DNA from: a virus
Lineage: Duplodnaviria; Caudoviricetes
Length of the DNA stretch: 64,000 nucleotides
Virus record (IMG/VR): IMGVR_UViG_3300020420_000671
Reading direction: 5' to 3' (one strand)
Positions 14,835-38,758 of the stretch are shown here, piece by piece (positions within the stretch are counted from its first letter, which is position 1; every line of letters starts with the position of its first letter). Position numbers and translations under genes: made by a program. The notes beneath the pieces are model-generated. The model made no database searches, had not been told where the DNA came from, and saw nothing but the letters and a program-made list of their open reading frames with translations.

Positions 14835-15203
14835 ATGGCGGAAGCCATGTTGTTATTCATGTTGGTTATAAAACATGCCCTAGCTGATCTGGTACTACAG
14901 AGCAGACTTACTTCTGGAGACAAAAGCAATCTAAAGAGTTGGAAAGGTTACATACACGCAGGAGACCACGGCCTTCTTACGTTCGTTGTTCTCTTGTTCT
15001 TTACTACCTTTGAAAATTCTGTAATCATAGGCATGTTGGATTACGTGCTTCATTTCCTTATAGACTATATCAAAACTGTATTAGTAAGACGTTTTGGTGT
15101 AGTACAGAATAGCCGAACATTTTGGATTGTACAAGGTGTTGATCAAATAGCACATTATTCTTGTTATTTTCTTTACGTTCTTCTCTTGACAAATCTATTA
15201 TAA
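14835..15203 (+). CDS. DUF3307-like membrane protein
   Basis: KHALADLVLQ...HAGDHG...LHFLIDYIK...GVDQIAH. Confidence 0.75.
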   Translation: MAEAMLLFMLVIKHALADLVLQSRLTSGDKSNLKSWKGYIHAGDHGLLTFVVLLFFTTFENSVIIGMLDYVLHFLIDYIKTVLVRRFGVVQNSRTFWIVQGVDQIAHYSCYFLYVLLLTNLL

Positions 15204-15216
15204 GATGCTATAAATA
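15186..15216 (+). promoter_or_regulatory. Composite sigma70 and late promoter for the tmRNA
   Basis: TTGACA-17-TATAAA; the -10 extends to TATAAATA. Confidence 0.75.
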
Positions 15217-15220
15217 ATAC

Positions 15221-15283
15221 TACAACGTTGAAGCAATTCAAACGCTGGACAGGACCTGGGGGCAGTACCCAGCAGGTCCACCA
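15221..15283 (+). ncRNA. ssrA: Two-piece (circularly permuted) tmRNA, acceptor piece
   Basis: GGAC-CTGGG-GGCAGTA-CCCAG-CAGGTCC-A-CCA: alphaproteobacterial-type T-arm plus 3' acceptor strand with encoded CCA; 5' end approximate. Confidence 0.9.
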
Positions 15284-15296
15284 TAAGGACATTGCT

Positions 15297-15485
15297 ATGG
15301 AAGTCATTTGGCATATTCTACTTACGGTTTGTTTAGGTTCGACCTGCCTAGAGCAAGACGTACAAAGGTTTGAGTCCAAGGTAGAATGTTACAAAGTATT
15401 GAAATACTATGAAACAACACCAGCAGATGGTCGTTGGGACACAGTAGAATATATTTGTAAGCCAGTTGGCTCAGTGTCTTTATGA
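15297..15485 (+). CDS. 62-aa Cys-pair family protein inside the tmRNA intervening segment
   Basis: SD AAGGA just after the CCA; ATG 15297; MEVIWHILLTVCLG...FESKVEC...YICKPVGSVSL*; stop 1 nt before the tmRNA 5' G. Confidence 0.75.
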   Translation: MEVIWHILLTVCLGSTCLEQDVQRFESKVECYKVLKYYETTPADGRWDTVEYICKPVGSVSL

Positions 15486-15486
15486 T

Positions 15487-15711
15487 GGGCCTGAAATAGG
15501 ATCGACTGACGGATTAGTAGAAGAGTGGAGTTGTCCGGATGTAAGCTCGGTTAACGCGAACAAACGTTATAAATGCAAACGATAATGCATCAAACGTATT
15601 TTCTTTCGTAGATTTTTCTAACGCGAGAAAGTACGTGAATGAGGATTTCGCCTTAGCGGCTTAATCGCTCGGGGTTGGCAACTTACCTAGCAACAGAAAA
15701 GTTGCTTTTTT
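15487..15711 (+). ncRNA. ssrA: Two-piece tmRNA, coding piece
   Basis: 5' GGGCCTG pairs 7/7 with CAGGTCC including G3:U70; AAATAGGATCGAC D-loop region; resume context ATAAAT-GCA; ends in GCAACTT...GCAACAGAA...AAGTTGC-T7. Confidence 0.9.
15575..15664 (+). other. tmRNA tag reading frame ANDNASNVFSFVDFSNARKYVNEDFALAA*
   Basis: Translated by hand from resume codon GCA 15575 to TAA 15662-15664; ANDN start and ALAA end. Confidence 0.85.
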
Positions 15712-15723
15712 ATGGGAGCTAGT

Positions 15724-16554
15724 ATGAATATTGGAGTTAGAGGTAGCAAACTAGCAATTGAATATGCTAAACAAGTAGAAGCACAATGTTTTAACAGTTT
15801 CCATACCAATCTCATTACAATCAAAACAGACGGTGATATCTTTGAGAATAAAAGCATACAAGACATAGGCGGCAAAGGTGTTTTTGTTTCTGCTATTGAA
15901 CAGCAATTATTAGATAAAAAGATAGATGTTGCTGTACACTCTTTCAAAGATCTTCCTGCGGTAATGGATTCAAGATTAGAAATATCAGCAGTATTAGAAC
16001 GCAATGATCCGAGAGATTGTTATATTGGAACGTTGTTTCCGAAAGCTAAAGTAGGTACAGGTAGTCCTAGACGTATTGCCCAACTACAAACAAACTTCAA
16101 TGTAGACTTTGATATACAGCACATAAGAGGCAATATAGATACTAGAATAAAAAAGCTAGAACAAGGAAAGTATGACGCTATTGTTTTAGCAGTAGCAGGA
16201 CTAGAAGCATTGGGTTTACAACACAAAATTACAAAGATATTTCCATTTGATAAAATGTTGCCTTGTGTAGGACAAGGAGTAATAGCAATACAAACTAGAA
16301 AAGGATCATCGCATAGTGAGGTTGCGAAACTAAATAATCACTGGAATACATACTATTCTGTGATGGCTGAACGTGCTATGTTACAAGAGATAGACGGAGA
16401 CTGCCATACTGCCGTAGGTGCTATTTCTACTCTAGTTGGAGGCTGTATAAATTTAAAAGCAATAAATTATAATACAGGAAAACAGTTTGAGTCAACCAGT
16501 AAACTGTTAGAGTATAAATTATTAGGTGAGGAAGTAGGTAAACAGTTAAAGTGA
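15724..16554 (+). CDS. hemC: Hydroxymethylbilane synthase (porphobilinogen deaminase)
   Basis: GVRGSKLA, KTDGD, GGKGVF, AVHSFKD, VGTGSPRR, IRGNIDTR, GQG, AERA...GDC cofactor Cys; SD GGGAG before ATG 15724. Confidence 0.93.
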   Translation: MNIGVRGSKLAIEYAKQVEAQCFNSFHTNLITIKTDGDIFENKSIQDIGGKGVFVSAIEQQLLDKKIDVAVHSFKDLPAVMDSRLEISAVLERNDPRDCYIGTLFPKAKVGTGSPRRIAQLQTNFNVDFDIQHIRGNIDTRIKKLEQGKYDAIVLAVAGLEALGLQHKITKIFPFDKMLPCVGQGVIAIQTRKGSSHSEVAKLNNHWNTYYSVMAERAMLQEIDGDCHTAVGAISTLVGGCINLKAINYNTGKQFESTSKLLEYKLLGEEVGKQLK

Positions 16555-34233: not shown

Positions 34234-34308
34234 ATGGGTGTAGTGTTAATGGTAGCACGTCGGTCTCCAAAACCGAAAGTAGGGGTTCAAATCCTCTCAC
34301 CTATGCCA
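34234..34308 (+). tRNA. tRNA-Trp(CCA)
   Basis: ATGGGTG/CACCTAT acceptor stem, anticodon arm TCGGT-CTCCAAA-ACCGA, GTTCAAATC T-loop, encoded CCA. Confidence 0.95.
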
Positions 34309-34330
34309 ACTGAAGGAGTAAATAGAACGT

Positions 34331-34816
34331 ATGAAAATATTCGGAAAAAAGTTAGAAGACTTTTACAAATGGGTAAAAGGCACAGAACTTGTAATACTAG
34401 AAGACATTGATGTTAAAGAAGATCCTGTGAGACCAGAACTAACTTTAGAATGGCGTAAGGAATACGGTAGACAAATATACGGTTTAAAATATGAAGACAG
34501 CATAGAAGGAGTAGTATGTGTTGCTTATACTAAAGGCGTTCCCTATAGTGTTCGAGAACTTGAATTGATGAGTGAGAATGCCAATATGAAAAGTGATGCT
34601 GATACTGCCGTTGCTTATACAGTATGGTCACGTAAGAGGGGTGCTGGTAAGGAAATTATAGCTAAACTGTTGGAACATGTTCAAAAAAAGACCGAACTAA
34701 AACGTATGGTCACACTTTCACCTTTGACCCCTATGGCAACACACTTTCACATAAGAAATGGTGCCAAATTGATAAAACATAACCCGGATACACAAAATTT
34801 CGAGTACAAACTGTAA
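34331..34816 (+). CDS. Hypothetical protein with GNAT-like C-terminal motif
   Basis: AYTVWSRKRGAGKEII...VTLSP...HFHIRNGA. Confidence 0.6.
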   Translation: MKIFGKKLEDFYKWVKGTELVILEDIDVKEDPVRPELTLEWRKEYGRQIYGLKYEDSIEGVVCVAYTKGVPYSVRELELMSENANMKSDADTAVAYTVWSRKRGAGKEIIAKLLEHVQKKTELKRMVTLSPLTPMATHFHIRNGAKLIKHNPDTQNFEYKL

Positions 34817-38402: not shown

Positions 38403-38479
38403 CTTCTCGTAGCTCAGCTGGATAGAGCGTCGGTTTGCGGAACCGGAGGCCACAGGTTCGAATCCTGTCGGGAAGGCCA
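38403..38479 (+). tRNA. tRNA-Arg(GCG)
   Basis: CTTCTCG/CGGGAAG acceptor stem; anticodon arm TCGGT-TTGCGGA-ACCGG, anticodon 38437-38439; A20-type D-loop; GTTCGAATC; CCA. Confidence 0.92.
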
Positions 38480-38494
38480 TTATAAGGAGATAAA

Positions 38495-38758
38495 ATGACT
38501 AAAAAGAATAAAGATTTTTCCGGTAACTTAATTAGGATATCAATACTGGAGAAAGAAATAGAGTTTGCTAGAAGCCAACTACAACCACATGATACTGGAC
38601 ATATTCATACAGCCATAAGCTGGTTAGAATCAAGACTAAATCATTTGAAAGGTATTAAAGAAGAAGAAATAGATTATCCTGATGGATATTCAAATGAATG
38701 GCGACAGCAACAACAAGATCCAAGACATAATCAATCTGCTTTTAAAGGAAACATTTAG
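38495..38758 (+). CDS. Hypothetical phage protein
   Basis: SD AAGGAG; RSQLQPHDTGHIHTAISWL. Confidence 0.65.
   Translation: MTKKNKDFSGNLIRISILEKEIEFARSQLQPHDTGHIHTAISWLESRLNHLKGIKEEEIDYPDGYSNEWRQQQQDPRHNQSAFKGNI

Follow-up and report, generated by a model that had tools for sequence, protein, structure and literature searches.

A conserved small reading frame fills the intervening segment of a two-piece phage tmRNA gene and is probably read on the tmRNA precursor

The tmRNA locus and its transcription

The locus considered here lies in a 64,000-nucleotide stretch of viral DNA (IMG/VR record IMGVR_UViG_3300020420_000671; Duplodnaviria, Caudoviricetes), which we call the window. The genes around it (NrdA, NrdB, glutaredoxin, a cold-shock protein, and hemC/hemE) are typical of a T4-like marine myophage, and the closest cultured relatives are cyanomyophages and the OM43 phage Melnitz. 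ARAGORN places a permuted tmRNA with a tag ending in ALAA at 15189-15755, and two Rfam models match the same region, namely, RF01849 (alpha_tmRNA) with 91.5 bits against a cut-off of 50 (15182-15708, model positions 1-355, a match span of 527 nt) and RF04321 (tmRNA_permuted) with 91.2 bits against a cut-off of 47 (15222-15664, model positions 1-213). Scoring above both cut-offs, the window tmRNA is an alpha-type permuted (i.e., two-piece) tmRNA. Both alignments leave a large unaligned insert between ...UCCACCA and GGGCCUGAAAUAGGAUCGAC, and this insert is the intervening segment (IVS) that separates the acceptor piece from the coding piece (Table 1).

The tmRNA around the insert is intact and evolving, as seen in G3.U70, the encoded CCA, the ALAA tag, and compensatory acceptor changes. 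That is, the acceptor stem, GGGCCUG paired with CAGGUCC, has 3 compensatory pairs among 17 sequences, in all of which the G.U pair is invariant, and the tag that ARAGORN reads, ANDNASNVFSFVDFSNARKYVNEDFALAA, has an alanine resume codon and the C-terminal ..ALAA. The 29-aa tag of the window is unusually long; tags of 9-13 aa (ADENLALAA, ANDNYAPEMALAA) are found in sister phages with the same IVS gene. Because ARAGORN missed about half of the permuted tmRNAs that are evident on inspection of the sequence, we disregarded its negatives. No intron family is among the Rfam matches at gathering level in the window.

A preliminary description of this DNA had placed a complete gene within the IVS, and its coordinates are exact in the sequence and its translation. 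The Shine-Dalgarno (SD) sequence AAGGA (15285-15289) sits 7 nt ahead of an ATG (15297-15299), which opens 62 sense codons that end at a TGA (15483-15485); a single spacer base, T15486, is then followed by G1 of the coding piece at 15487, and the whole comes to 203 nt. The gene is present once in the window.

Table 1. Features of the permuted tmRNA gene and of the gene in its intervening segment
Feature	Position	Strand	Basis
ssrA promoter: TTGACA (15186-15191), 17-nt spacer, TATAAATA (15209-15216)	15186..15216	+	Sequence; promoter columns of the Rfam alpha_tmRNA model align here
Acceptor piece of the permuted tmRNA	15222..15283	+	RF04321 alignment from 15222, ARAGORN, covarying acceptor pairs
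T-arm and 3' strand of the acceptor stem, CAGGUCC (15273-15279); discriminator A15280; encoded CCA (15281-15283)	within acceptor piece	+	
5' strand of the predicted closing helix, CA + UAAGGACAUUG; includes the SD	15282..15294	+	MFE fold, conserved pairs
Intervening segment (IVS), 203 nt; not part of the mature two-piece tmRNA	15284..15486	+	Unaligned insert in both Rfam models; ends set by CCA and G1
62-codon protein gene P0001, family WHILLTVCxGSxC...DGxWD...CKP	15297..15485	+	Translation, homologues, dN/dS, AlphaFold2
3' strand of the predicted closing helix, CAGUGUCUUUA + UG; last sense codons and first two bases of the stop	15472..15484	+	Fold, alignment
Coding piece of the tmRNA	15487..15711	+	ARAGORN tag, Rfam alignment, terminator scan
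5' acceptor strand GGGCCUG, with G3.U70	15487-15493	+	Invariant G.U pair, alignment columns 12/226
Conserved GAAAUAGGAUCGAC	in coding piece	+	
Tag frame, 29-aa tag ANDN...ALAA	15575-15664	+	ARAGORN
Terminator hairpin and U tract	15689-15706	+	Terminator scan; the one terminator, after the coding piece

How is this gene transcribed? The element TTGACA-N17-TATAAATA is the sole promoter-like element ahead of the unit formed by the tmRNA and the open reading frame (ORF). Its TATAAATA box fits both the sigma-70 -10 box and the T4 late-promoter box, and the ssrA gene of Melnitz carries the identical element; such motifs suggest that ssrA may be transcribed both early and late. The consensus scanner left this promoter unlisted because the sixth base of its -10 box is A, and it returned no promoter-like site within the IVS. 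Given that the 62-codon gene has no detectable promoter of its own, it would be transcribed from the ssrA promoter within the tmRNA precursor. RNA-library contigs from three metatranscriptome studies bridge the junction between the ORF and the coding piece, one of them spanning 15115-15500. We used the bridging alone, disregarding depth differences and uncovered parts, and take it as weak evidence for a precursor, since DNA carry-over is possible and the contigs show neither ends nor strand. In addition, a conserved and covarying helix joins the two ends of the IVS (described below), and such a helix is sensible only on a single precursor. From these observations, we infer that the ORF and both tmRNA pieces are co-transcribed as one unit, in agreement with the preliminary description, which had treated them as such.

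The upstream neighbor of ssrA (14835-15203) encodes a 122-aa membrane protein (DUF3307 / phrog_2470), the last codons of which overlap the -35 box of the ssrA promoter.

The 62-codon gene and its family

The claim that the IVS is almost exactly one protein gene stands up well to comparison. A search of 5.8 billion proteins yielded 93 clusters of homologues from marine metagenomes, with 58-100% identity and nearly all of 62 aa. An alignment of 34 sequences has 22 invariant columns (including W5, H6, C12, C17, C31, D44, G45, and W47) and a variable middle; four cysteines (C12, C17, C31, and C54) are conserved or almost so. In relatives with an IVS of 202-205 nt and a 62-codon ORF, an equally long ORF arises in only 0-2 of 300 shuffles. 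Across 21 distinct IVS-resident coding sequences, pN is 0.12, pS is 0.44, and the median dN/dS over 210 pairs is 0.18; a value near 1 had been named beforehand as the outcome that would speak against the gene. Copies of the family outside the IVS have a median dN/dS of 0.16. Finally, AlphaFold2, run on the family alignment, models a beta-hairpin, a helix, and a strand with a mean pLDDT of 89.7, a confident fold. On the evidence of sequence comparison, then, the 62-codon ORF is a real, conserved gene, and purifying selection acts on its protein.

Could the conservation instead be that of the RNA? One might argue that the ORF is untranslated and that what is conserved is the structure of the precursor RNA, or that ssrA is a disrupted relic with two dead halves. 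The IVS is indeed highly structured (see the z score below), and third positions are frozen also in a hairpin that spans codons 11-20 within it. However, an RNA-level constraint fits poorly with the many synonymous changes behind the low dN/dS or with the confident fold, and the protein sequence is kept in contexts that have neither a tmRNA nor the helix. Nor does the tmRNA resemble a relic, since every lineage has compensatory changes in it, along with G3.U70 and an intact tag. We consider this explanation highly improbable.

What the protein resembles is a shorter story. No Pfam family matches it at E <= 1, and a PHROGs search gave no match; a nuclease family is likewise absent from the Pfam and PHROGs results. 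Foldseek returned nothing significant in the PDB (best E = 0.28) or BFVD and, in AFDB, only the family's own cluster, which bears the automatic name “secreted protein”; the ESM Atlas gave just unnamed viral clusters. A signal peptide was considered for the hydrophobic N terminus and rejected, as AlphaFold2 models this part as a beta-hairpin.

The preliminary description had pointed to the ssrA loci of related phages as the place to look for cargo genes, and the arrangement does recur there. An exact-pattern scan finds the 62-codon gene inside the IVS, at the same junctions, in 29 IMG/VR contigs, and sister IVSs hold other cargo ORFs. The tmRNAs of the IVS-bearing contigs have diverged (six different tags and compensatory acceptor-stem changes), and the junctions are nearly invariant, ...CCACCA/UAAGGACAUUGA-N0-3-AUG...UCU UUA UGA/U/GGGG.... 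What that description missed is how recurrent the IVS gene is: the slot is reused in phage ssrA, and the same gene lies between tRNA genes elsewhere.

In IMG/VR, 252 stretches encode a relative of the 62-aa protein, and 80 of the 252 were examined for context. The 54 distinct copies comprise 21 in an IVS, 14 flanked by tRNA genes, 2 beside ssrA, and 17 in ordinary positions; 37 of the 54 adjoin tRNA or tmRNA genes directly. In the second of these contexts, the gene is wedged between tRNA-Thr and tRNA-Leu, with its SD 14-21 nt past the tRNA, and the G of its stop TAG is G1 of tRNA-Leu, so that RNase P cleavage would take off the stop codon. Such wall-to-wall loci are L013, L017, L019-L023, L040, and L060 (the ORF being at 1501-1689 in most); at L061/L063/L064 and L071, tRNA-Leu begins 2-3 nt past the stop. 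The tRNA-flanked copies L013, L019, and L061 show a predicted pairing between leader and tail of -9 to -11 kcal/mol, which alone is not significant against shuffles, and this pairing (AGGAAGUUGA with UCAACUUCU) has two compensated positions. The third context is that of ordinary intergenic positions; among these, the Melnitz copy ends within the -35 box of the ssrA promoter, and the copies in L073-L078 lie ~430 nt upstream of ssrA.

The protein tree, built on 62 columns, has weak resolution. It places the IVS copies in two groups, and one of these joins the copies of Melnitz and L073 in a well-supported clade; the tree neither shows nor rejects that the IVS location arose only once (p-AU 0.079). 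Among 50,697 GenBank phage records, the family occurs only in four Melnitz isolates, and no cultured phage in these records has it inside an IVS. The only two “bacterial genome” matches of the family are on contigs of metagenome-assembled genomes (MAGs), L111 (Marinovum, NZGN01000038.1) and L112 (Verrucomicrobiales), and both are probably phage contigs binned into MAGs. The Marinovum MAG contains a second, phage-type alpha tmRNA (116.9 bits, IVS of 45 nt) beside its own (283.9 bits).

The helix that closes the intervening segment

The stretch from 15270 to 15500 folds with a minimum free energy of -80.4 kcal/mol (z = -5.6) into a near-continuous helix, in which the 7-bp acceptor stem and the pair A73-U(-1) are followed, past one C x A mismatch, by 13 more pairs (CA-UAAGGACAUUG with CAGUGUCUUUA-UG). 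The ends of the IVS are thus predicted, in the window fold as in 17 relatives, to form a helix of 13-14 bp stacked on the acceptor stem. RNAalifold gives a 14-bp version for the 17 relatives, with all pairs kept in 17/17 and one pair covarying as U-A / U.G / C-G. The duplex has an energy of -16.8 kcal/mol in the window and of between -18.4 and -22.2 kcal/mol in the relatives, as against about -7 to -9 kcal/mol for shuffles.

The signals for translation of the gene are part of this predicted structure. The SD pairs with codons 61-62; the start codon is in a 7-nt loop next to the inner end of the helix; and the stop codon faces the CCA end (U-A76, G-C75, and A x C74, where A15485 is opposite C15281). 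Even the single “spacer base,” U15486, pairs with the discriminator A15280. The third positions of codons 59, 61, and 62 and of the stop are invariant in the IVS copies (entropy 0) and have 0.93-1.57 bits in the non-IVS copies, which vary at codons 59, 61, and 62 even in the amino acid. Since it is only in the IVS copies that the last codons have frozen synonymous sites, the C terminus of the gene has been fitted to the closing helix.

An 11-bp internal hairpin (15327-15356, codons 11-20) is predicted as well in 17/17 IVS copies. Its third positions are frozen in the IVS copies and variable in the non-IVS copies, and its changes are one-sided, with no compensatory pair.

The helix is not peculiar to the 62-codon gene. 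A scan for the phage T-arm/CCA/UAA motif gave at least 120 further loci, from which 103 unique IVSs (9-266 nt) were obtained. The 99 unique phage IVSs with a length of 28 nt or more are closed by a stem of at least 10 bp; between 85 and 100% of them have a pair at each of stem positions 2-10, covariation is abundant (up to six pair types per position), and a shift of the register collapses the pairing. The closing stem is present also in short IVSs that have no ORF and in Melnitz. The IVS ends in UGAU in 86 of the 99, and because the UGA is present even in 50-nt, ORF-less IVSs, the stop codon of the gene is a structural element of the IVS.

Other cargo is common. Among 32 unique IVSs of 90 nt or more without the 62-aa family, the sense ATG-initiated ORF beats 95% of shuffles in 23 and is longer than the antisense ORF in 30, and most have an SD of the GGAG/AGGA type 15-25 nt past the CCA. 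Many of these cargo ORFs place the GGAG just inside the stem, so burial of the SD is not universal. They belong to many unrelated families; three with several members have dN/dS of 0.08-0.30 except for one close pair (0.51). One is recognizable: a 63-codon ORF filling a 223-nt IVS (L125:8744-8935) belongs to Pfam DUF6356 (43.3 bits; the cut-off is 24.4). Melnitz itself (MZ577097; L001:3296-3457) has an unannotated 54-codon ORF in the IVS of its own ssrA, which reads past G1 into the coding piece and shares 68% identity over 38 aa with the ORF in the IVS of an IMG/VR locus (L205). Several cargo ORFs in sister phages likewise run beyond G1, stopping at the UAG of the conserved GAAAUAGG, and ORFs that cross G1 would be readable only on the unprocessed precursor. 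The stem-closed spacer is, in sum, a recurrent slot for unrelated small genes in the ssrA of aquatic phages.

Bacterial permuted tmRNA genes present a different picture. In 121 sampled alphaproteobacterial genomes, of which 116 had a match above the cut-off, the full-length matches span 283-454 nt bar one of 634 nt (G041 is ordinary at 333 nt). The 33 bacterial IVSs that were read are of 10-76 nt, plus three of 120-333 nt, with a closing stem in some, and 0/33 are filled by an ORF. The 333-nt IVS of one alphaproteobacterial ssrA (L261; G107:C23:31600-32800) is AT-rich, with no ORF filling it.

Might the gene simply be a hitch-hiker? On this explanation, small accessory genes move among highly transcribed, insertion-tolerant gaps near tRNA-like genes, the position of the gene has no regulatory meaning, and the helix is an ancestral IVS stem. 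The several contexts of the family would fit, as would the well-supported clade that mixes IVS copies with copies just outside ssrA, the unrelated cargo that fills the same slot in sister phages, and the occurrence of the stem without cargo; the tRNA genes of the window also have an SD and an ATG within about 15 nt. Mere tolerance, however, would not account for an arrangement that was kept while synonymous sites neared saturation (pS up to 0.72 among the IVS copies), nor for an SD, C-terminal codons, and a stop that were remodelled to suit the helix. Moreover, some tRNA-flanked copies have matching pairing of leader and tail with the two compensated positions noted above, which suggests that pairing of the ends matters to the cassette. 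We regard the hitch-hiker explanation as quite unlikely.

A probable double role of one transcript as messenger and precursor

Given that the SD and the stop are built into the helix that closes the IVS, one transcript is probably both a messenger and the precursor of a stable RNA. We posit, and think it likely, that the small protein gene sits in the hairpin loop of the phage ssrA IVS and is read on the precursor, after which the helix shuts the SD and the segment is excised. In this model, ribosomes would load on the nascent transcript during the ~190 nt that are transcribed before the complementary strand of the SD is made, and the gene would thus be read on the precursor. When the closing helix and the acceptor stem form, the ribosome-binding site would be shut and initiation would stop. 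Enzymes of the tRNA type would then excise the IVS (i.e., RNase P at G1, together with trimming of the 3' end), possibly after a double-strand cut in the ~22-bp helix, the length of which suits an RNase III substrate. RNase III takes part in the processing of T4 tRNA precursors. Each transcript would serve as messenger first and as stable-RNA precursor later. To read the last codons, a ribosome would have to open the helix and would occupy the RNA from G1 on, so that a single molecule could not be translated and keep its tRNA-like fold at the same time. The preliminary description had offered, as its second option, that translation of the spacer might gate the folding and processing of the tmRNA. 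A 13-14 bp helix over the SD should also strongly repress initiation, and the yield of protein could therefore be low. Since burial of the SD is not universal among cargo ORFs, burial here may moreover be economy and not control.

Alternatively, as in the first option of the preliminary description and much like the tRNA punctuation of mitochondria, the gene may be expressed mainly after processing, with RNase P and the formation of the CCA end freeing a monocistronic messenger of ~203 nt with paired ends, one for one with the tmRNA. The excised piece would be a complete mRNA, as its SD starts 1 nt after the CCA and its stop lies 1 nt before G1; the paired ends could shield it from exonucleases; and other phages have this gene packed tightly between tRNA-Thr and tRNA-Leu. 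Yet the SD would still be locked in the excised RNA by a helix of -17 to -22 kcal/mol, the tRNA-flanked copies would lose their stop to RNase P, and processing would truncate those other cargo ORFs that cross G1. We judge expression mainly from a released messenger to be unlikely; the anatomy as read from the sequence (the buried SD and stop, and the sister IVS ORFs that run past G1) argues for competition over simple release.

Can the model of translation on the precursor be taken further? We speculate that the closing helix might be a programmed switch, under which cargo translation and tmRNA maturation exclude each other on any one transcript, and that the cargo proteins might act on trans-translation or on tRNA-like RNAs. 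A hint of such an action is the share of family copies that directly adjoin tRNA or tmRNA genes (37/54, as above). We hold the switch, together with this role of the cargo, to be unlikely. If it were true, phage ssrA loci would make up a new class of dual-function RNA operon, their stable-RNA precursor being a timed messenger for its own modulators.

How does the arrangement compare with known systems? Transcripts punctuated by tRNAs are known from animal mitochondrial mRNAs, the thrU-tyrU-glyT-thrT-tufB operon of Escherichia coli, and the T4 tRNA cluster with its interspersed ORFs. In these systems, as here, a coding sequence abuts tRNA-like structures on one transcript, and tRNA-processing enzymes set the ends of the message; the tRNA-Thr/ORF/tRNA-Leu arrangement, with a stop that overlaps G1, recalls the incomplete stop codons of mitochondria. 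In contrast to tRNA-punctuated transcripts, the flanks of the window gene are halves of one molecule that pair across the gene, with the SD and the stop within the pairing.

With the permuted tmRNA known from Alphaproteobacteria and from T4-like marine phages, Melnitz among them, the window has in common the order of acceptor piece, IVS, and coding piece, the T-arm, G3.U70, the CCA, the ANDN...ALAA tag, and the early-type promoter. A stem that closes the IVS is likewise common to the window, Melnitz, and some of the bacterial genes. The difference from the bacterial genes lies in the content of the IVS, which in the window is a complete protein gene under selection. The only IVS cargo named in the 2025 tmRNA database paper (PMC11915505) is a tRNA-Ala gene and a repetitive element, and the Melnitz paper (PMC9004378) leaves IVS ORFs unmentioned.

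The ORF-bearing IVS of 23S rRNA (S23p; Coxiella burnetii and Leptospira; PMC4990558) is alike in that a segment with an ORF inside and a stem at the excision site is excised from a stable-RNA precursor. Its host RNA is an rRNA and is cut by RNase III, whereas the host RNA in the window is a tmRNA; furthermore, the window ORF has no Pfam match, is under clear purifying selection, and has copies outside the IVS, so that the likeness is an analogy only. A passage of the same paper has S23p as probably not made in vivo (PMC4990558). Assignment of the window gene to the S23p type of rRNA IVS was rejected on two counts, the lack of any Pfam family at E <= 1 and the tmRNA host. Group I introns, some with homing-endonuclease ORFs, also interrupt tmRNA genes (PMC11915505) and are similar in that a coding insert is removed at the RNA level, but those inserts are in the T-loop and self-splice (PMC11915505), unlike the IVS of the window. 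An insert of this kind was likewise rejected, as the window has no Rfam intron family and the protein has no Pfam or PHROG match.

None of these closest known systems combines a selected protein gene with a tmRNA IVS. The preliminary description knew of no such arrangement in a phage, and a search of a paper library found no description of a protein gene in a tmRNA IVS. As predicted from fold and alignment, what is new here is a helix of the IVS ends stacked on the acceptor stem, with pairing between the SD and the last sense codons and between the stop UGA and the CCA end.

The IVS of two-piece tmRNA has so far been treated as a disposable spacer; here it is a conserved coding slot, with translation signals in the helix that joins the two halves. 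It offers a natural system in which translation competes with the folding and processing of a stable RNA on one transcript, and it adds phage tmRNA to the cases of tRNA-punctuated gene expression. It points to dozens of small phage genes that lie unannotated within RNA-gene annotations, one of them in the cultured Melnitz. In the window itself, the genes for tRNA-Trp and tRNA-Arg (34305-34335 and 38476-38500) are each followed by an SD and an ATG within about 15-25 nt, so that this genome generally packs genes directly against the 3' ends of its tRNAs.
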